DNA of 64,000 bases from a virus (taxonomy: Duplodnaviria; Heunggongvirae; Uroviricota; Caudoviricetes): IMG/VR virus record IMGVR_UViG_2721755756_000002; one strand, 5' to 3'. Position 1 is the first letter of the stretch. Each line of letters begins with the position of its first letter. The notes under the pieces were generated by a model. It had not been told where the DNA came from. It worked only from the letters and a program-made list of their open reading frames with translations, and searched no databases. Below are positions 3,346 through 62,499 of the stretch, in pieces. The translations under genes and the position numbers were made by a program.

Positions 3346-3597
3346 ATGGAAATGTATGAATTAGTACCTACAAATCAAAAGAGTTTTTATGGCAAAGCTA
3401 TCGTGGTAAGAGACGAAGCAGGAAATAAAACACTATATAGTTATAACACACCAATTATCAAACGTTCTAATTCTGGTGAGCTTGTCAGATTATGGGATGG
3501 TTGGAGTGCTACAACAGGCAGACATATAAAAGCTTTTTGTGGATTGAATAAGGCAGGTTTCATGGCCTTACCAGCACAAAATACAGGAGGAAAATAA
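3346..3597 (+). CDS. hypothetical early protein
   Basis: ORF with AGGAGG RBS; first gene of a long + strand early operon. Confidence 0.5.
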   Translation: MEMYELVPTNQKSFYGKAIVVRDEAGNKTLYSYNTPIIKRSNSGELVRLWDGWSATTGRHIKAFCGLNKAGFMALPAQNTGGK

Positions 3598-3599
3598 GA

Positions 3600-4091
3600 A
3601 TGTTAGATGGTACAAAAAAATATAGCATGGAGAAGTTTGGGAAGAAATGTTTTTTGTTAGGTCAAGACAAGGATGGAATTAACTATTTCCTTGAGGCAGC
3701 CACATGGGATTGTGAATGGTACTGGGGTGGTGGATATGTAGAAACATACACAAATAACTGTAATCCGGTATTATCAAAAGATATTAAAAGTCACCAACAT
3801 TTTGATGGGCTTTTCTTTGGTGGACGAAAAAATGGCTTTGATACATTTAAGGAATTTCTGCCAGTTAATCCTTTTACTGATTCGGAAATTTGGCAAATAT
3901 GCGAATTGATGAAATCGTTTTATATAGCGCGAAAGTATGCCGATATGGTTTATACAGGCGGTGCACATTATACAAAAAATCCAGCTGCTGAAATTATCAA
4001 ATCAGAAGACGAGTACAAGCGTATAAATAACATCGTAATCCCAGCTATTATGGAATCATTATATAAAATTTTGGAGGAGGTAGCAGCATGA
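3600..4091 (+). CDS. hypothetical protein
   Basis: 163-aa ORF tightly packed with the preceding ORF. Confidence 0.5.
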   Translation: MLDGTKKYSMEKFGKKCFLLGQDKDGINYFLEAATWDCEWYWGGGYVETYTNNCNPVLSKDIKSHQHFDGLFFGGRKNGFDTFKEFLPVNPFTDSEIWQICELMKSFYIARKYADMVYTGGAHYTKNPAAEIIKSEDEYKRINNIVIPAIMESLYKILEEVAA

Positions 4092-16153: not shown

Positions 16154-17114
16154 CGTCGGGGATACTACTATAAATACAATCGTAAATGCAAGTACGGCTA
16201 TAGCAGTACAATTTCAATTTGATGCGCCAACATTCTTGGAATGTTGGAATGAGGTGTACGCCAAAAAGATAATCAAAAAGTCAGAAGGTACGCAACGTAG
16301 TTATCAGTCAGCATTCAGAAGATTTTCTTATCTGTACGAAAGGAAGATCAATACAATCACTTTAAGAGATTTACAACCCATCTTTGATAATGCCATGGAA
16401 GCAGGAGCATCTAGGTCATTATTATGTAATATGAAATGTATTTTAAATTATATTTATGACTATGCCCTAAGGTATGATTATGCATTTAAACGTTATCCAG
16501 ACTATATCGAATGGGAAGCTACTACTCAAGATGTAATCAAACACGAACCATTTTCAAAGGAAGAAATTCAAAAAATATATGAAGCTGCAAGTCATTCAAG
16601 ATTTTGTGAGTTAATACTAATTTATATCTATACTGGTATGCGTCCAATTGAGCTTATCTGTATGACTTCAGAGGATATACACCTTGATGACGATTATATG
16701 GTAGGTGGTGCAAAAACACATGCAGGTAAGAATAGGATAATCCCTATACACCCGTTGATTAAACCGTACATCGTCCATTTGCTTGAAAGGGATAAAAGGT
16801 ATCTACTATATAATGATTGTAATAGACATACGGTAAATAATTATCGTATGAACATGTTTTATCCCGTAATGGACATTTTAGGTATGGATCATTACCCATA
16901 CGATACTCGACATACCTTTGCAACACTTTGTAATGAATATCATGTTGATGATTATGCAGTCAAGAAAATTATGGGGCATTCTTGCAATGATATCACTAAA
17001 GATGTGTATACACATGCATATCTTGATTATTTACAAAAACAAATCAGAAAGTTACCAAATCCTGATAAATTGAATAAGAAAAGTATGTGGAGGAAATTGT
17101 TTGAAGAGATATGA
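16122..17114 (+). CDS. tyrosine site-specific recombinase (phage integrase family), internal to the replication region
   Basis: SAM-like N-terminal domain; catalytic-region motifs TGMRPIEL (Arg), KTHAGKNRIIPI (Lys), DTRHTFATL (H/R), GHS...DVYTHAY (His, Tyr). Confidence 0.75.
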   Translation: MKELKENTSFNVGDTTINTIVNASTAIAVQFQFDAPTFLECWNEVYAKKIIKKSEGTQRSYQSAFRRFSYLYERKINTITLRDLQPIFDNAMEAGASRSLLCNMKCILNYIYDYALRYDYAFKRYPDYIEWEATTQDVIKHEPFSKEEIQKIYEAASHSRFCELILIYIYTGMRPIELICMTSEDIHLDDDYMVGGAKTHAGKNRIIPIHPLIKPYIVHLLERDKRYLLYNDCNRHTVNNYRMNMFYPVMDILGMDHYPYDTRHTFATLCNEYHVDDYAVKKIMGHSCNDITKDVYTHAYLDYLQKQIRKLPNPDKLNKKSMWRKLFEEI

Positions 17115-17227
17115 TACGATGACTTCAAAAAATGTAGCATGTTTTTTAGAGCGTTTCGGACTACGTCTCAGTAATTATGAGTAGTTTAATCGTTCAAGAG
17201 AACCAACAAAGATAGAAAGAGGTACTG

Positions 17228-17620
17228 ATGAAAAAAAGAAAATGTGGAAGATTTGAGTTTTACGATTATCAGGCAGAAATTAAAGATATCATCTATCTTG
17301 CGAAAGATGAATTTGAGTGTAATTTAAAAGATATAAAAAAATTAGACCAATTACAACAGGACTTGTTGCATAAGCTTGAAGAAGATATCAATACTATAAA
17401 TGTATTGCAAATAGCTTGGGATTTGAGAAGACTGAGACTTAAAAGAAGAGAGTGCAAGGCGAGAGATAAATTTTTATATCAGTTTATCAATGAGCTTAAT
17501 AACTCTTATAATAAAAAGACCTTAAATCGAATGCTTGATCCTAAAATCATGAATTACGAAGACCATGAGTATCGTCCAAGGCTAGGTGACAAACAAAAAG
17601 TAAATGAAATATTGTCATAA
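17228..17620 (+). CDS. hypothetical basic protein between the two recombinase-like genes
   Basis: 130 aa; K/R-rich. Confidence 0.45.
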   Translation: MKKRKCGRFEFYDYQAEIKDIIYLAKDEFECNLKDIKKLDQLQQDLLHKLEEDINTINVLQIAWDLRRLRLKRRECKARDKFLYQFINELNNSYNKKTLNRMLDPKIMNYEDHEYRPRLGDKQKVNEILS

Positions 17621-17651
17621 ATGGAAAAAAATGGAAATTATTCATAAATTG

Positions 17652-17680
17652 ATTGACACATACCCCAGAATTGTGTAAAA
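17652..17680 (+). promoter_or_regulatory. sigma70-like promoter TTGACA-17-TAAAAT carrying the conserved motif CCCAGAATTGTG.AAA.TGTAGACGAA
   Basis: consensus boxes with 17-bp spacer; the same ~30-nt motif recurs at 30690-30720. Confidence 0.5.
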
Positions 17681-17722
17681 TGTAGACGAATCAAAGAAAG
17701 AGTCTATGTAATAATGTAACAA

Positions 17723-18550
17723 ATGCTAGTGATACTAATATTGAAAGGAGGGAAATGTGTGGGTAAAAATGAAATAACTGATTTTGACAAGTATGTATCT
17801 GAAAGATATACAACTACCATTGCAAAAAGATTTGGTACAATTGCTAAGTTGTTTAATCAATACATGTGTGATAACGGGCTTAAAGCAGAAGCTGTTACAG
17901 AACAGGATATAAAGGACTTTATATCTAGCAAGGAAAAATTGAGAATGACCGAATACTTGATGTGCTCAGCTATAAAATGTTATGGAGAATATCTAGGGCT
18001 GAATAACATCATTGGTGTAGATGTCGATACGGGCAAAGATGTTAAGGTCTTAACTAGATCCGACATTGACAATATGCTGGATCGACATGATGTTACGTAT
18101 AGGCAAAAGTTATTGGTAAAACTATCTTATACGTATCTATTCAAAAAGTCAGATATTATCAATTTGAAGTTTTCTGATATTGACTTTGATATGAGGACGA
18201 TCCGACGTGGAGATTTGATTTTAGACATAGATGATGAGTTTGAAATCATGTACAAAGACTATTATAAAGATCTTATGGAAGATATAGCTAGGTGGCAGGA
18301 AACAAGAAGAAAGAAGTCCCGCCCTGAGCTAAAGTATTCAAATCATGTGTTTCGGACAGCCAATTCAATTAAATTGTCAATTTCAACAATAGAACAGGAT
18401 TTATTAAGGTTAGGTACAAACGTAAAAGTTTTACGAGACAGTGGAAAGGTAGACCTATTAAAAAACGGTCATACTGTTGCAGAAGTTTTGGAGCTTGCAG
18501 GTACAGACAACTATGATGCTGTAATTAAACTTTATAAACATGTCTTATAG
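17723..18550 (+). CDS. divergent tyrosine-recombinase-like protein (possibly catalytically altered)
   Basis: integrase-like N-terminal region; C-terminus VLRDSGKVDLLKNGHTVAEVLELAG...KLYKHV is similar to LRHTFAT...GH...YxH but lacks the HxxR His. Confidence 0.4.
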   Translation: MLVILILKGGKCVGKNEITDFDKYVSERYTTTIAKRFGTIAKLFNQYMCDNGLKAEAVTEQDIKDFISSKEKLRMTEYLMCSAIKCYGEYLGLNNIIGVDVDTGKDVKVLTRSDIDNMLDRHDVTYRQKLLVKLSYTYLFKKSDIINLKFSDIDFDMRTIRRGDLILDIDDEFEIMYKDYYKDLMEDIARWQETRRKKSRPELKYSNHVFRTANSIKLSISTIEQDLLRLGTNVKVLRDSGKVDLLKNGHTVAEVLELAGTDNYDAVIKLYKHVL

Positions 18551-37579: not shown

Positions 37580-38062
37580 ATGATATTTAGTATAGACCCG
37601 GGCAACGTGTATAGTGCATATTCAGTTTTAAATGAAGATTTAAGACCTATTGAGTTTGGCAAAGTAGAAAATCAAGAACTATCTGAAATTATAAAGAATC
37701 ATTATGAATTGGATCATACGAGGATGCCATTTGTAATCGAAATGATTGGACACTATGGCACAGGAATGCCTGCAGGAAAGACGGTGTTTGATACATGTGT
37801 ATGGATTGGAAGATTTACAGAGTTGTATCACCAATACACTGGTAAAGAACCTGTCTATATTATGCGTAGAGAAGAGAAGTTGAATCTATGTGGGAATATG
37901 AAAGCCAAAGATGGGAATATACGACAAGCATTGATAGATAGGTTCGGTGTTGTAGGCACAAAGAAAAACCCGGGGTGGTTCTATGGGGTTTCTAAAGATG
38001 TATGGGCTGCCATTGCTGTTGGAGTTTCGTATCATGATATTTATGAGGAGGAAAGAAAATGA
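37580..38062 (+). CDS. RuvC-like / RNase-H-fold Holliday junction resolvase candidate
   Basis: N-terminus MIFSIDPGNVYSAYSVL resembles the RuvC GIDPG motif. Confidence 0.45.
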   Translation: MIFSIDPGNVYSAYSVLNEDLRPIEFGKVENQELSEIIKNHYELDHTRMPFVIEMIGHYGTGMPAGKTVFDTCVWIGRFTELYHQYTGKEPVYIMRREEKLNLCGNMKAKDGNIRQALIDRFGVVGTKKNPGWFYGVSKDVWAAIAVGVSYHDIYEEERK

Positions 38063-38601
38063 AACTGAGTGATTTGAAAACGGGTATGTGGGTTAAGTCA
38101 AGGAATGGTGACATGTCTCTTGTTATGAGAGACCACGTATCTATAAGTTCAAGTGATGGCATATTTATTGACAAATGTGGATATTTTGAATTCAAAGAAT
38201 ACAATGATGATATGACAGATTGTGAGTTCACAGAATGCGACATAATCGAAGTGTTTATACCAGATTTGGAAAAGTGCACATTAAATGGAGATGGTCTAAT
38301 CTCTATTTGGAAAAGAAAGGAATTGCCGAAATTAGCTCCATTTGAAAAAGAATTCCTAAAAGCTTTAAAGCCTGCATATAGAAGTTGTTGGATTGCTAGA
38401 GATAAAGGTGGAGACTTGTATGCACATGATGGAAAGCCAATAAAGAATGAACTGGTTTGGGTAAGTGAATACTGCCATGAAATTAGTGATTCTGCCAATT
38501 TCCAGCTCTTTTCCAAAGAACCCTTTACATGGTGCAAATGGGAAGACGAAGAACCGTGGTATATTCCGGATTTGTTAAAAGAGGCATAAGGTATGGCTGA
38601 T
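38050..38601 (+). repeat. ~550-bp direct repeat, copy 1 (paired with 57452-58004)
   Basis: first ~330 nt differ at only a few positions, the remainder at about 90%; identity ends right after TAAGGTATGGCT. Confidence 0.8.
38059..38589 (+). CDS. hypothetical protein; copy 1 of a duplicated gene (copy 2 at 57453-57992)
   Basis: about 95% identical at DNA level to the second copy. Confidence 0.6.
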   Translation: MKLSDLKTGMWVKSRNGDMSLVMRDHVSISSSDGIFIDKCGYFEFKEYNDDMTDCEFTECDIIEVFIPDLEKCTLNGDGLISIWKRKELPKLAPFEKEFLKALKPAYRSCWIARDKGGDLYAHDGKPIKNELVWVSEYCHEISDSANFQLFSKEPFTWCKWEDEEPWYIPDLLKEA

Positions 38602-38728
38602 AACAAACATATCACGATATGGGAAAAAGAGAATTCTGAACATTCTAGCAAAGCAAGGGCTGAAGTGCAGATTTGTCTTAACAGGGACTGAAAATGATCC
38701 AACTGATATTTTGGAGATAGTGAAATGA
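38593..38728 (+). pseudogene. decayed 3' remnant of a homologue of ORF 60215-60688
   Basis: about 85% nucleotide identity to 60566-60688; encodes the in-frame C-terminus ISRYGKKRILNILAKQGLKCRFVLTGTENDPTDILEIVK without any start codon. Confidence 0.5.
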
Positions 38729-57451: not shown

Positions 57452-58004
57452 GATGAAGAAAATGAAACTGAGTGATTTGAAAACGGGTATGTGGGCTAAG
57501 TCAAGGAATGGTGACATGTCTCTTGTTATGAGAGACCACGTATCTATAAGTTCAAGTGATGGCATATTTATTGACAAATGTGGATATTTTGAATTCAAAG
57601 AATACAATGATGATATGACAGATTGTGAGTTCACAGAACGCGACATAATCGAAGTGTTTATACCAGATTTGGAAAAGTGCACATTAAATGGAGATGGTCT
57701 AATCTCTATCTGGAAAAGAAAAGAATTGCCGAAATTAGCTCCATTTGAAAAAGAATTTCTAAAAGCTTTAAAGCCTGCATATAGAAATGGTTGGATTGCT
57801 AGAGATAAAGGTGGAGACTTGTATGCACATGATAGAGAGCCAATAAAGAACGGACTAGGTTGGGTAAGTAGATACTGTTATGAAATTAGTGATTTTGCCA
57901 ATTTCCCGCTCTTTTCCAGAGAATCCTTTACATGGTGTCAATGGGAAGACGAAGAACCGTGGTATATTCCGGATTTGTTAAAAGAGGCATAAGGTATGGC
58001 TTCA
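57452..58004 (+). repeat. ~550-bp direct repeat, copy 2
   Basis: see copy 1. Confidence 0.8.
57453..57992 (+). CDS. hypothetical protein; copy 2 of the duplicated gene (copy 1 at 38059-38589)
   Basis: near-identical protein with 3 extra N-terminal residues. Confidence 0.6.
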   Translation: MKKMKLSDLKTGMWAKSRNGDMSLVMRDHVSISSSDGIFIDKCGYFEFKEYNDDMTDCEFTERDIIEVFIPDLEKCTLNGDGLISIWKRKELPKLAPFEKEFLKALKPAYRNGWIARDKGGDLYAHDREPIKNGLGWVSRYCYEISDFANFPLFSRESFTWCQWEDEEPWYIPDLLKEA

Positions 58005-58820
58005 TATAAAAGGCATCTGAATAAAGACTATACTGTCATGCCTAACCATCATCTACGAAATAAGGATTTATCGTTAAAAGCAAAAGGATTGCTTAGCATG
58101 ATGTTAGGGTTACCTGATGATTGGGATTATTCAATCAACGGTCTGGTGGCAATATCCAGAGAAGGCAGAACAGCTGTTGAAAATGCTTTGAAAGAATTAA
58201 GAGAAGCGGGCTATGTTGTCATACGTAAGTTATATCCTAATCAAACAGATAGTAGAATCATTGAATATGAGTACAATATCTACGAATTTCCACAAGGCGA
58301 AAATGTAGCGAGTCAAGACATCATATATCAAGAAGCACATAAACAAGGAACAGGTTTTCAGCCCCTTGAAAACCACCAACAATTAAATACTTATAAATCA
58401 AATACTTATAATAAAAGAAATATAAAAGAAATTCAATTTGATTTGACAGGAAAAGAAGAAACGGACAAATCTACACCAGAGATAGAGTTAGAGATAGATA
58501 TATATAAATATAATGTGCAAATTCATGATGAATTTGAAGAATTATGGAAGCTTTATCCTAACAAAAAAGGTAAGACTAATGCATTTAAGTCTTATGAAAG
58601 AGAATGCAAGAAAAAGAAGAATCCTGCTAAGTTTGAGGAAGTGAAGAAAGGCCTTATTGCATATTGTGAATATATCAAAGCAACGAATATAGAAATGCGC
58701 TTCATAAAGAATGGTTCTACCTGGTTTAATCAAAGATGCTGGGAGGATGATTATACTATCCAAAATGGAAAGAATAGTCAGACAAATAAGAAGGCTCAAC
58801 CGGAATATGAATTATTGTGA
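57996..58820 (+). CDS. DnaD-like phage replisome organiser / replication initiator
   Basis: N-terminus YTVMPNHHLRNKDLSLKAKGLLSMMLGLPDDWDYSINGL...AVENALKELREAGYV resembles the phage replisome-organiser N-terminal domain. Confidence 0.5.
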   Translation: MASYKRHLNKDYTVMPNHHLRNKDLSLKAKGLLSMMLGLPDDWDYSINGLVAISREGRTAVENALKELREAGYVVIRKLYPNQTDSRIIEYEYNIYEFPQGENVASQDIIYQEAHKQGTGFQPLENHQQLNTYKSNTYNKRNIKEIQFDLTGKEETDKSTPEIELEIDIYKYNVQIHDEFEELWKLYPNKKGKTNAFKSYERECKKKKNPAKFEEVKKGLIAYCEYIKATNIEMRFIKNGSTWFNQRCWEDDYTIQNGKNSQTNKKAQPEYELL

Positions 58821-60018: not shown

Positions 60019-60214
60019 ATGTGGAAAGTTTATGAAATGATAAAATCAGGGGATTTTGATATCGAACTAATAAAAAAGATTCCGCCACAAGAGATAAAAG
60101 AGGCATTGATTGAATTTGCATTAAGCAAAGATAAGTAATCTGTACGTGTAGCGGCGTTATAGCAAGGCGAAAGGTGTTGCCCCTTATCGGTCTCACTTCC
60201 GCCTGTTACACGCC

Positions 60215-60688
60215 ATGGAACAGCCATATGAGGCGCTGATAACGAATCAGAAGGGAGTGAGGGATATGCGGATAGCTAAAAGAGCAGAATTGCTAAAGAG
60301 ATGGGAGCAAGAGCATAAATCGTTCCGAAATGAATTGGCAGAACGGATAGGTATTACTCCGGTAAGCATCAATAATTATTTGAAAATATACACAGGGACG
60401 ATCAAGCAGAAGGAGTTCTGGAAGGTTGCAGGTGAAATGATGGGAGTAGATTTTGAAGCTGAAACTGAAAAACCAAGAAAATATGAGAAGGTTGTATTAC
60501 CACCTTACATTGCAACAACGTTGAAATCAAAAGGCAGGACTGTGATTGAACGCAAGTACATATCACGATATGGGAAAAAGAGAATTACGAACTATTTAAC
60601 TAAACAAGGGTTAAAGTGCAGATTTGTCTTAGCCGGAACTGAAGAAGATCCAACTGATATTTTGGAGATTGCAGCAGATAACAAATGA
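60215..60688 (+). CDS. hypothetical protein (intact homologue of the remnant at 38593-38728)
   Basis: 157 aa; its C-terminus corresponds to the remnant. Confidence 0.5.
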   Translation: MEQPYEALITNQKGVRDMRIAKRAELLKRWEQEHKSFRNELAERIGITPVSINNYLKIYTGTIKQKEFWKVAGEMMGVDFEAETEKPRKYEKVVLPPYIATTLKSKGRTVIERKYISRYGKKRITNYLTKQGLKCRFVLAGTEEDPTDILEIAADNK

Positions 60689-60724: not shown

Positions 60725-61342
60725 GTGAAAGCGATGGAACGCATTGAAGCGTTATACCATGATACCGGCGGTAAGTGCTATGTATCGTTTAGCGGTGGCA
60801 AAGACAGTACAGTCATACTCGCTCTCATAAAAATGTGCGAGCAGATTTATACACTACCACCAGATTCCATGCCTGCGGTATTTTGTAACACAGGGATAGA
60901 GCTGGGAGCTACGGTTAATTTTGTACGATGGGTAAAGGATAACTATTACTCCAACGTGCAGATTATCAGACCAGACCCTAAAAAGCCATTTGACTGGATA
61001 ATCAAAAACTGTGGGAAACCAATAAAGTCAAAAATGAAGAGCGAAATGCTGCACCGTTGGCATGCCACAAAAAACGAAAAATCGCTCAAATGCCTTGTTG
61101 ATGCAGATAACAAACTAAACAAAACAAAAATAGCGAACAAAGACCTGCACCTAATACATCCTGATTTTGATATCACCGTCAGTCAAAAATGTTGCATGTA
61201 CCTAAAAAAGAAACCATTCGAGAAATACAACAAAGATACCGGCATTAAAGGATTTATAACCGGATTACGATCTGGTGAGGGGCAAGACAGTTACAGGCAG
61301 ATGGAAGAATCAAAAATGGCGGCAGCTTATGCACGACGATGA
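60725..61342 (+). CDS. PAPS-reductase-family (PP-loop ATP pyrophosphatase) protein, N-terminal portion
   Basis: PP-loop SFSGGKDST; GLRSGEG...R motif. Confidence 0.6.
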   Translation: MKAMERIEALYHDTGGKCYVSFSGGKDSTVILALIKMCEQIYTLPPDSMPAVFCNTGIELGATVNFVRWVKDNYYSNVQIIRPDPKKPFDWIIKNCGKPIKSKMKSEMLHRWHATKNEKSLKCLVDADNKLNKTKIANKDLHLIHPDFDITVSQKCCMYLKKKPFEKYNKDTGIKGFITGLRSGEGQDSYRQMEESKMAAAYARR

Positions 61343-61734
61343 GAGGCAAATTAATAAACAAGCTACCAATCATCGACTGGACAGATAAAGACATTGAGGA
61401 CTTTATCAACGAGTATAACGTGCCTTTATCCAAAGCGTATACTGAGCAAGGCTACGAGCGTACAGGATGCTTCCTGTGTCCTTATTCTTTGCACCTTGGG
61501 GATAACTTAATCAAATTGCATAAGTATGAGCCATTGCGCTACAAAGCTGCCATGCATTGGTTAAAGGATGTGTATATAGCGCAAGGTGTAATCCTGCCGT
61601 TTGATGCTGAATACGAAACGGAAAGAGTGAAAAAATGGAATGAAGTTTACTCGCAAATGCGGTATGAAATGCTTTTGAAATACAGACCGCTATCAGCAAA
61701 AAAATATGAAAATGAGCAGCAATGTTTATTTTAA
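61339..61734 (+). CDS. C-terminal portion of the PAPS-reductase-family protein (separate ORF overlapping by ATGA)
   Basis: LPIIDWTDKDI...GYERTGCFLCP corresponds to the conserved C-terminal block of the same family. Confidence 0.5.
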   Translation: MRGKLINKLPIIDWTDKDIEDFINEYNVPLSKAYTEQGYERTGCFLCPYSLHLGDNLIKLHKYEPLRYKAAMHWLKDVYIAQGVILPFDAEYETERVKKWNEVYSQMRYEMLLKYRPLSAKKYENEQQCLF

Positions 61735-61742
61735 ATAAAAAT

Positions 61743-61873
61743 GGTGTCCTCCATCCATATGTTGAGCAAGACAACGACCCTATTTCATGCAGTGGAAAGT
61801 TGATAAAAGGCAAACGCTCAACCAGGTGCGTGCGGGAAAGGAGGGCAGTTTGACGCATGGATGGAGGGCATCA
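61743..61873 (+). promoter_or_regulatory. GC-rich structured leader closed by a 12-nt inverted repeat (cctccatccat / atggatggagg) with nested gttgagc/gctcaac stem
   Basis: visible inverted repeats; local GC much higher than surroundings; 3' arm overlaps the annotated start of the next ORF. Confidence 0.4.
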
Positions 61874-62187
61874 TTACAAAAAGAGAGGAAACTATGAAAG
61901 CATATTGCATGAACGGCAGTGTAATTGATGTTGTAAAAGCCGATAAGTATGTAAAACAAGTAGATGAGAATGCTGCTTATATGGCTGATGTAGGAACATA
62001 TATGCTTATGTTGATACCGTCCGATAAAACTGAAATCGAGTCAGGGCATGAATATATGACTTACAAAATAAACGATGAAATGTATGAATCGTGTTTGACA
62101 AGTAAGCACGATGAGCTTGTAAAATTTTACGGTGGCCAAACATTTCGTAAAAATAGAGCACTACATGAGCAATTAAGTTTATTTTAG
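61861..62187 (+). CDS. hypothetical protein (start likely the internal Met at 61894)
   Basis: RBS AGAGAGGAAACT before ATG 61894. Confidence 0.45.
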   Translation: MEGIITKREETMKAYCMNGSVIDVVKADKYVKQVDENAAYMADVGTYMLMLIPSDKTEIESGHEYMTYKINDEMYESCLTSKHDELVKFYGGQTFRKNRALHEQLSLF

Positions 62188-62202
62188 AAAGCAGGTGAAA
62201 TT

Positions 62203-62499
62203 TTGAAACAAGAAAGCTTATTTGGAAGAGCTGTTGATCTTTCAACAATGAAATATGAAAAAAGAGGAAAAAAGACTATAAAGCAAGCATTCCGTGAAGT
62301 GGCTGGATATAACGATAAACATACATGCGCTGACTGTAAGCATCATCATGCGTATAAACATTGTGGAAGTCGTAAAAGGATTTATCATAAATGTGAAAAA
62401 ATTGGAAATAGCAGCTGTGAATCCACAGATATCCGGTTGAGTGATAGAGCGTGTAAATTTTATGAGTCAGAAGGAAGCGAGAAGAATGGAACGAAGTGA
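62203..62499 (+). CDS. Cys/His-rich small protein (zinc-binding-like)
   Basis: CADCKHHHAYKHCGSRKRIYHKCEKIGNSSCE. Confidence 0.4.
   Translation: MKQESLFGRAVDLSTMKYEKRGKKTIKQAFREVAGYNDKHTCADCKHHHAYKHCGSRKRIYHKCEKIGNSSCESTDIRLSDRACKFYESEGSEKNGTK

Follow-up and report, generated by a model that had tools for sequence, protein, structure and literature searches.

A conserved intercistronic hairpin of the Clostridium innocuum prophage Maintenon and related gut phages, possibly an mRNA processing element

What keeps a hairpin of about 136 nucleotides (nt) nearly unchanged between phage genes that are themselves exchanged from one relative to the next? The question arises at positions 61740-61875, on the + strand, of a 64,000-nt stretch of tailed-phage DNA (Caudoviricetes; IMG/VR record IMGVR_UViG_2721755756_000002), referred to below as the window. 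The initial annotation had noticed here a strong inverted repeat enclosing about 100 nt just upstream of the open reading frame (ORF) that starts at 61894, and had taken it for a GC-rich structured leader of that ORF, perhaps a riboswitch-like or protein-binding translational operator, a small ribozyme or a recombination site. The inverted repeat is confirmed, and the reading as a structured element holds: the element is a conserved, non-coding, single-copy module of fixed orientation, with a stable fold and modular gene contexts. From comparison with its relatives, it would belong to a narrow family of conserved structured intercistronic RNA elements of phages. We propose, with a probability of about 0.35, that it is a cis-acting intercistronic hairpin for mRNA processing or stability, probably a substrate of the RNase III type.

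The hairpin and its relatives

The arms of the hairpin contain two perfectly complementary 11-nt cores, CCTCCATCCAT at 61748-61758 and ATGGATGGAGG at 61857-61867, each 2 nt lower than first reported (61750-61760 and 61859-61869). Around these cores, the arms match over 19 nt with 89% complementarity (61740-61758 with 61857-61875) and, with G·U pairs counted, become a 26-bp RNA helix. Folded as + strand RNA, positions 61735-61900 give a single long irregular hairpin of -54.7 kcal/mol (z -4.87 against 200 dinucleotide shuffles, of which 0/200 reach the native stability). The whole window contains 16 inverted repeats of at least 15 nt within 200 nt, and this hairpin is the sole G+C-rich one of comparable quality. 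Its G+C excess is real but slight (0.48-0.49 vs 0.30-0.45 in most neighbouring 120-nt intervals); since two nearby intervals reach 0.53, it does not stand well above background as first described. A second GC-rich intergenic spacer, at 60139-60214, has an insignificant fold (z -1.3).

The phage concerned can be named. Positions 61300-62300 are 100% identical to positions 16956-17956 of Clostridium phage Maintenon (ON453900.1; host [Clostridium] innocuum), and by this identity the window is the chromosome of C. innocuum I46 with prophage Maintenon, position 1 of the Maintenon record corresponding to about 44345. The hairpin occupies the 159-nt gap between a gene for a PAPS-reductase-family protein and the 97-amino-acid (aa) ORF at 61894, referred to as the MKAYC gene after its first residues.

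Copies were sought by BLAST of the 161-nt region against fetched loci, and then with a two-anchor pattern, CCTATTTCATGC..CGGGAARGGAGGG. The pattern matched 14 viral loci and 16 loci from metagenomes, of which those in named ENA records come from human-gut assemblies, and had 0 matches in one-genome-per-species bacterial and archaeal contigs (185,579 species genomes); a second genome scan returned two chance proteobacterial matches only. After deduplication, 16 distinct full-length copies remained, all in gut phage or prophage contigs, with 85-96% identity over about 140 nt. No similarity was found among 72,556 plasmids, and phage databases returned Maintenon itself only. A covariance model built from 15 copies found exactly one copy in the window (157 bits), and the complete 57-kb Maintenon genome likewise has one. 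The same model found no copies in 33 further phage loci, including 13 PAPS-reductase phages, and a search of locus L087 with filters off returned no element. As judged from these sequences, the family is narrow, at 85-96% identity.

Three independent truncated derivatives occur alongside the full copies. In L030/L051 the 5' arm is deleted between TGAGCAAG in the PAPS-reductase gene and the identical word in the element; about the first 42 nt remain in L003/L078 and the first 57 nt in L079. Where pairs of copies share a flanking gene, the element retains 85-92% identity, vs 66-74% at third codon positions in the tail of the PAPS-reductase gene and 80% in the MKAYC gene. Because the element is more conserved than these positions, and because its variation is concentrated in the outer pairs and the apex, sequence comparison indicates that it is constrained or repeatedly exchanged, rather than a decaying palindrome.

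The consensus structure, obtained with RNAalifold from the 15 aligned copies, comprises 45 pairs, and its parts are listed in Table 1. The 26 bp of the basal helix (columns 6-31 with 121-146) are paired in 98.5% of cells, the window copy having one A·C mismatch, at 61759. Pairing of UGUUGAGC with GUUUGACG (61849-61856) is backed by changes in relatives from C-G to U-A (L048), from G·U to A-U (L074) and from G·U to G-C (L057), and column pair 6/146 alternates between U-A, U·G and C-G. Variation falls mostly in the outermost pairs and the apex, with columns 12-58 and 102-140 near-invariant. This conserved part includes the 11-nt motif AAGACAACGAC (61768-61778); in the drawn structure its last base, C61778, already belongs to the first pair of the following helix. 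Opposite the internal loop that the motif forms, the 3' side has two unpaired bases. The motif is essentially invariant, the exceptions being a 2-nt insertion (L068) and a change of the last base from C to T (L048).

Beyond this loop stand three inner helices, CCCU/AGGG, UUUC/GGAA and UGCA/UGCG. The pairs in 61778-61791 are 100% paired over the 15 copies, and one-sided changes that preserve pairing occur at columns 50/112 (U·G/U-A), at columns 58/104 (A-U/G·U) and, in L080, in the innermost helix (U·G to U-A). In the variable apex, three pairs of helix 3 are each disrupted in one copy. Among the nested stems proposed at the outset, CCCT (61778-61781) with AGGG (61842-61845) is retained in the consensus. 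The stem GTTGAGC/GCTCAAC is complementary in the window, but it is not conserved, the 3' partner being GCTCAGC, GCTCGCA, GCTCACG or GTTCGCA in relatives. The supposed GNRA-like loop GGAAAGG is not a loop, as its GGAA pairs with UUUC.

Table 1. Parts of the hairpin and the two adjoining genes, in window coordinates
Feature	Position	Strand	Remarks
Upstream gene, PAPS-reductase-family protein	60725-61734	+	Frameshift-split here; intact, 335 aa, in relatives
A-rich 5' flank AAATAAAAA	61733-61741	+	Starts inside the upstream TAA stop; AAAT(A/T)AAAA in nearly all copies
Basal helix, 5' strand	61742-61767	+	Contains CCUCC; RNAalifold columns 6-31, minimum-free-energy fold, inverted repeat
Internal loop, 5' side only, motif AAGACAACGAC	61768-61777	+	Alignment and RNAalifold
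Inner helices, 5' strands CCCU, UUUC, UGCA	61778-61791	+	Bulged A's between the strands; RNAalifold
Variable apex	61792-61830	+	Indels of 1-5 nt, substitutions; local pairing uncertain
Inner helices, 3' strands UGCG, GGAA, AGGG	61831-61845	+	Includes GAAAGGAGG, a Shine-Dalgarno-like purine run
Basal helix, 3' strand GUUUGACGCAUGGAUGGAGGGCAUCA	61848-61873	+	GGAGG inside serves the following gene as Shine-Dalgarno sequence in the most frequent other context
Downstream gene (MKAYCM...), 97 aa	61894-62187	+	Ribosome-binding site of its own, GAGAGGAAA, beyond the hairpin at about 61881-61889

A conserved ORF across the hairpin is excluded, because the apex carries indels of 1, 2, 3 and 5 nt and no reading frame stays open in the relatives. 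Two gene calls in the Maintenon record are thereby corrected. The 43-aa hypothetical protein WAK79456.1 (61722-61853), whose coding sequence overlaps the hairpin, is almost certainly spurious. For WAK79457.1, GenBank places the start at 61861, with an N-terminal extension (61861-61893) within the hairpin; homologues in IMG/VR contigs begin exactly at MKAYCM or MRAYCM, which indicates that the extension is a mis-annotation. The start at 61894, already considered the likely true one, is thus upheld, and the ATGs in the 3' arm (61857 and 61861) are not start codons of a conserved protein.

Strand preference and gene contexts

Does the hairpin work as RNA or as DNA? Across the 45 pairs of the alignment, 145 cells are G·U and 5 are A·C; ten pair columns are mostly G·U and zero are mostly A·C. 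Under neutral transition decay, where G·T and A·C are equally likely, the two-sided probability that ten of ten such columns fall on one strand is about 0.002. All of the aligned homologues (15/15) are more stable on the sense strand (-50 to -64 vs -37 to -53 kcal/mol). In the window, the z-scores are -4.87 for + strand RNA, -3.06 for - strand RNA, -3.33 for + strand DNA and -2.38 for - strand DNA, and under DNA parameters the basal helix loses its inner, G·U-rich part. The G·U bias, the better folding of the sense strand and the RNA z-score lying beyond that of DNA together favour, in these folding models, a sense-strand RNA over a sense-strand DNA hairpin. In the consensus, 98.7% of cells are paired, vs about 45% for slid structures.

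The genes around the element change while the element does not. Over the copies it has at least 4 upstream and at least 6 downstream partner genes. Upstream stands the 335-aa PAPS-reductase-family protein, a second PAPS-reductase-like protein of 374 aa, a zinc-ribbon protein of 51-56 aa or the MKAYC protein. Downstream stands the MKAYC gene (97 aa), a 105-aa MDLKEIEK protein followed by an N6/N4 methyltransferase and an SNF2-type helicase, a PcfK-like and then a PcfJ-like protein, a Dam-type methyltransferase, a 161-aa methyltransferase-like protein or a 685-aa protein. The element follows the PAPS-reductase gene directly but precedes other genes in L010 and L011, lies downstream of the MKAYC homologue in L005-L007, L012, L013 and L066, and is found in unrelated surroundings in L043 and L047. 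In every context it is co-oriented with the genes, starting 5-24 nt past the upstream stop and ending 0-30 nt before the next start. Between unrelated contexts, homology starts at AAAT(A/T)AAAA, 9 nt before the stem, and ends exactly at the last paired base.

Because its neighbours on both sides vary in this way, the element is not a dedicated leader of ORF 61894, as had been supposed. Moreover, MKAYC homologues in L003, L004 and L005-L007 have no element upstream, a different gene abutting in L003-L007, and in L005-L007 and L066 the element stands downstream of the homologue. Where PAPS-reductase phages lack the element, the following gene abuts and there is no analogous hairpin, except in L023, a distantly related phage with a 371-nt non-coding spacer after that gene (3408-3780; z about -3.9; no Rfam match).

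In Maintenon, the hairpin lies about 14 kb into a long rightward early region that runs from a Cro-like repressor through SbcC/RecT, a replication initiator and a DnaB-type helicase to a sigma factor. The genes of this region are nearly all on the + strand, and within 13 kb around the hairpin they are 100% so. The replication genes in the window are a DnaD-like initiator and a DnaB helicase. Elsewhere, the setting differs: a rolling-circle Rep of the HUH type (PF23343) lies upstream, at 0.2-2 kb, in 11/16 distinct copies and is absent from the window, L066, L071 and L068. The contexts without it have DnaD-like, DnaB or other initiators, and the element thus accompanies at least 2 unrelated initiator types. 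In L043, L048, L057, L069 and L074, the Rep is a 301-aa protein (ORF2/G2P, PF23343, motif HHHFVID) encoded 0.2-2.6 kb upstream. These Rep-bearing contigs are tailed-phage-like and also carry PcfK-like and PcfJ-like proteins, which are otherwise known from conjugative plasmids.

On other aspects, the neighbourhood of the hairpin offers several observations of its own. The PAPS-reductase gene is present as two ORFs (205 aa and 131 aa), with a frameshift near 61279-61282 from frame +2 to frame +1, and the cause could be pseudogene formation, an error of sequencing or a programmed shift. The 97-aa MKAYCM protein has no match in Pfam or PHROG. The last 22 nt or so of the PAPS-reductase and MKAYC genes are alike (GAGCA..TTTATTTTA plus stop; 61710-61734 vs 62163-62187), as also seen in L066, and these shared ends may be the trace of a swap in the order of MKAYC gene and hairpin between phages. 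Further upstream, direct repeats lie about 19-22 kb apart (38053-38352 vs 57456-57755, 99%; 38607-38718 vs 60558-60669, 87%), a sign that a related, second phage-like region may precede Maintenon in the window. This agrees with the two prophages described at the I46 locus (PMC10197239). That second region holds no further copy of the hairpin.

Possible roles of the hairpin

How might such a hairpin act? As an mRNA processing or stability element, it would be transcribed within the long rightward early operon of Maintenon and would act in cis on the polycistronic mRNA wherever it is located, rather than as a switch of a single gene. Host RNase III, which is specific for double strands, would cut the basal helix, with its 26 bp rich in G·U. 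The cut might instead be made by RNase Y, within the A-rich tract that immediately precedes this helix on its 5' side; an A-rich tract beside a strong hairpin resembles RNase Y entry sites in Firmicutes. Cleavage would uncouple the message of the upstream replication genes from the downstream message, the resulting ends being presumably hairpin-protected, and where GGAGG sits in the 3' arm the cut would also release the ribosome-binding site of the next gene. The 26 bp of the consensus helix compare with the 20 bp or so, or more, of near-continuous double-stranded RNA expected of an RNase III substrate, and position and orientation fit a sense-strand element of a polycistronic message, with all genes on the + strand and no promoter or terminator nearby.

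The company that the element keeps points in the same direction. Rfam models recognise pistol ribozymes in two element-bearing contigs, L043 (5034-5097, a weak match at 34.9 bits vs a threshold of 34.5 bits) and L079 (1592-1655, 56.6 bits; 2416-2479, 34.9 bits), and a type II hammerhead in L080 (7452-7514) on the - strand, which is the strand of its element copy. All these matches are intercistronic and on the gene strand; the window has none. RNA cleavage between cistrons therefore seems, from these predicted ribozymes, to be a recurring feature of related operons, and this recurrence makes an RNA-processing role of the hairpin more plausible.

Several points nevertheless weigh against a processing hairpin. 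The RNase III sites of phages T7 and SP82 number several per genome, and the element occurs once. Its strict 11-nt loop and bulged inner helices suggest a more sequence-specific partner than a generic double-strand RNase, and the three truncated derivatives (L030/L051, L003/L078, L079) imply that some relatives manage without an intact hairpin. Of the two supports sought in related phages, conservation was found, but covariation did not exceed the shuffle control (one double change; score 0.073 vs 0.072; 15 copies), and with a mean column identity of 87% the family has too little depth for covariation to prove the structure. Finally, transcription and RNase cleavage are both predictions from the sequence.

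Searches against known families and signals bear on the alternatives. None of the 4227 families of Rfam 15 matched the window at its gathering threshold, and at E<=10 nothing relevant appeared on 61500-62100 or on the L043 copy. Scans for transfer and transfer-messenger RNAs (tRNA/tmRNA) found none, and a scan for sigma-70-type promoters and intrinsic terminators was empty at the element. Complements of the invariant loop and the apex, as possible targets in trans, occur elsewhere in the window at chance level only. A check by eye for resemblances to a K-turn, a GNRA receptor, twister-like motifs or the hairpin ribozyme gave nothing convincing. In the literature, no link was found between PAPS reductase, phage and ribozymes, and the papers on Maintenon are silent on the element.

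Further candidates were set aside. An independent small RNA gene was rejected for its lack of promoter and terminator and for a conserved module that starts merely 9 nt before the stem. An intrinsic terminator on the + strand was rejected for want of a U-tract there, and an origin specific to one initiator because the element occurs with at least 2 unrelated initiator types. Stem hexamers that would mimic a single-strand DNA promoter amounted, on inspection, to TTGACG only, with no conserved -10.

Among the rival explanations, one places the hairpin in DNA: it would be a single-strand initiation site of the sso/ssi type (single-strand origin or single-strand initiation), recognised by the host, which folds in the displaced sense strand and primes lagging- or minus-strand synthesis of the complementary strand. 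Its setting within a replication module, as a single copy of a strand-specific, long and imperfect hairpin in fixed orientation, would suit this role, as would the 11/16 copies that lie 0.2-2 kb downstream of a PF23343 HUH Rep; the sso elements of rolling-circle plasmids are moreover exchanged like cassettes between unrelated replication modules. The window phage, L066, L071 and L068, however, carry the element without this Rep, about 21% of pair cells are G·T and thus weak in DNA, and the + strand DNA fold, at z -3.3, loses the inner basal helix. Inspection of the stem found neither a CS-6-like TAGCGT nor a promoter-like hexamer pair, and the 72,556 plasmids hold nothing similar. A better candidate for an origin is offered by AT-rich direct repeats (AATCAAATACTTATA twice, ATAAAAGAAAT twice and AGAGAT four times) at 58381-58520, in the middle of the DnaD-like initiator gene (57996-58820); these plausibly represent a phage replication origin of a more conventional kind than the hairpin. 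We consider the DNA role possible but doubtful. A different use of the DNA, as a recombination cassette or mobile element like a miniature inverted-repeat transposable element (MITE) or an attC site, with the arms as terminal inverted repeats or a recombinase site and conservation resulting from spread, we regard as quite unlikely. The suggestion of a recombination site retains indirect support, in that mosaic junctions coincide with the edges of the element: homology between unrelated contexts starts about 9 nt before the hairpin and stops exactly at its end, many combinations of upstream and downstream genes occur, the 19-nt arms resemble terminal inverted repeats, and the PAPS-reductase and MKAYC genes share some 22 nt at their ends. 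GTTGAGC and GCTCAAC also match the attC core consensus words GTTRRRY and RYYYAAC. These words stand in reverse order, however, and the second is not conserved. Features of attC or MITEs are otherwise lacking: there is one copy per genome, never inverted, without target-site duplication, and no integron integrase or transposase is adjacent. The element was found in this phage lineage only, with none in the 185,579 species genomes or the plasmids, and a site in duplex DNA would leave the sense-strand G·U bias unexplained.

The other rivals concern RNA. A translational operator or riboswitch, responsive to a ligand or protein, would control the next gene by opening and closing the basal helix, and in the MDLKEIEK context (L043, L059, L061, L069, L070, L072 and L073) GGAGG does lie within the 3' arm, 9 nt before the ATG. 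Pairing between CCUCC and GGAGG is how Shine-Dalgarno sequences are typically sequestered, the bulges and the unvarying internal loop resemble a specific binding site, and a second GGAGGRCA, at 61840-61847, is a theoretical competitor for the 5' arm. Yet the Shine-Dalgarno sequence lies inside the arm in that one context only, most contexts, including the window, having their own ribosome-binding site outside the hairpin, and a 26-bp helix is too stable for unaided toggling. The downstream genes are at least 6 and unrelated (encoding the 97-aa, PcfK-like, Dam-type methylase, 161-aa methylase, 685-aa and 105-aa proteins), which makes it improbable that a riboswitch serves one kind of gene function; neither a terminator nor an alternative expression platform is present, and no Rfam riboswitch matched even at E<=10. 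The operator and riboswitch readings first put forward are therefore unlikely. Still less is to be expected of a new small self-cleaving ribozyme, or of another autonomous catalytic or trans-acting RNA processed from the operon. The unpaired nucleotides are highly conserved, the position is intercistronic, and pistol and type II hammerhead ribozymes occur within the same operons of related contigs, a kind of neighbourhood that earlier led to new ribozyme classes; but the 26-bp closing helix and the 140-nt size are atypical of small ribozymes, no Rfam ribozyme model matches at E<=10, and a compact catalytic core has no covariation support. Hardly any weight falls to an intrinsic terminator for leftward transcription, in which the hairpin would be followed on the - strand by TTTTTATTT. 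The A-rich 5' flank, conserved in nearly all copies, would indeed supply a U-tract after the stem on that strand, but no context has a neighbouring gene on the - strand, the stem is 4-25 kcal/mol weaker on that strand, where it bears A·C mismatches, terminators do not usually keep 85-96% identity and invariant internal loops, and the terminator scan was empty at the element. A long shot, finally, is that the hairpin represents an undescribed class of functional RNA of gut Erysipelotrichaceae phages, either a new ribozyme or a sequence-specific protein- or ligand-binding RNA, carried as a cassette at early-operon junctions in genomes with intercistronic pistol or hammerhead ribozymes.

If the hairpin does function as RNA, it would be an undescribed structured motif, outside Rfam, that is kept under selection while neighbouring genes swap, and it would add to the evidence that RNA cleavage between cistrons organises long early operons. 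Maintenon is one of two inducible prophages of C. innocuum in the OMM12 community, where the strain is I46 (PMC10197239). The presence of I46 in this model community and the inducibility of the prophage make the element experimentally tractable.

Comparison with known systems

Several known systems share part of the design of the element. Single-strand origins, such as ssoA and ssoU of rolling-circle plasmids with their RSB and CS-6 (TAGCGT) motifs, or the minus-strand origin of filamentous phages, are likewise imperfect hairpins of 130-200 nt, in one strand and orientation, interchangeable between replicons and, as in most copies of the element, near an HUH Rep. The element differs from them by occurring also in phages without an HUH Rep, by a helix rich in G·U (G·T in DNA) that favours RNA, and by the absence of plasmid homologues. 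Compared with ssoA, it lacks RSB and CS-6: what stands instead is TAGCTC near the apex in some copies and CGCTCA in the window. From integron attC sites, which have R'' (RYYYAAC) at the 5' end and R' (GTTRRRY) at the 3' end, it is set apart by the reversed order of these words, with no integron integrase in the neighbourhood, and from MITEs by its single copy, single orientation and lack of a flanking duplication. With the pistol (RF02679) and type II hammerhead (RF02276) ribozymes it shares genomes or lineage, strand and intercistronic placement, but it matches no ribozyme model in sequence or in structure, and its closing helix is much longer.

The closest resemblance is to the RNase III hairpins between phage early genes, namely the R0.3-R1.3 sites of T7 and the sites in the early mRNA of Bacillus phage SP82. 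Like these, the element is a sense-strand intercistronic hairpin with about two turns of double-stranded RNA and an internal loop, located in a long early operon and conserved in sequence as a module. Unlike these sites, several of which occur per genome, it is present once and is larger (about 136 nt), its asymmetric loop contains an 11-nt motif that does not vary, and its three inner helices are bulged. In its distribution, the element recalls the PeSL cassettes of T4-type phages, which join a terminator-like stem-loop to an early promoter and occur in many copies (PMC2839356, PMC4122927). Both are conserved intergenic cassettes with a stem-loop, found in closely related phages where shuffled gene modules meet, whereas the element, according to our scan, contains no promoter or terminator and is limited to one copy per genome. 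By analogy, the hairpin is thus predicted to be most like the T7 and SP82 RNase III sites in its working, while being distributed like the PeSL cassettes.

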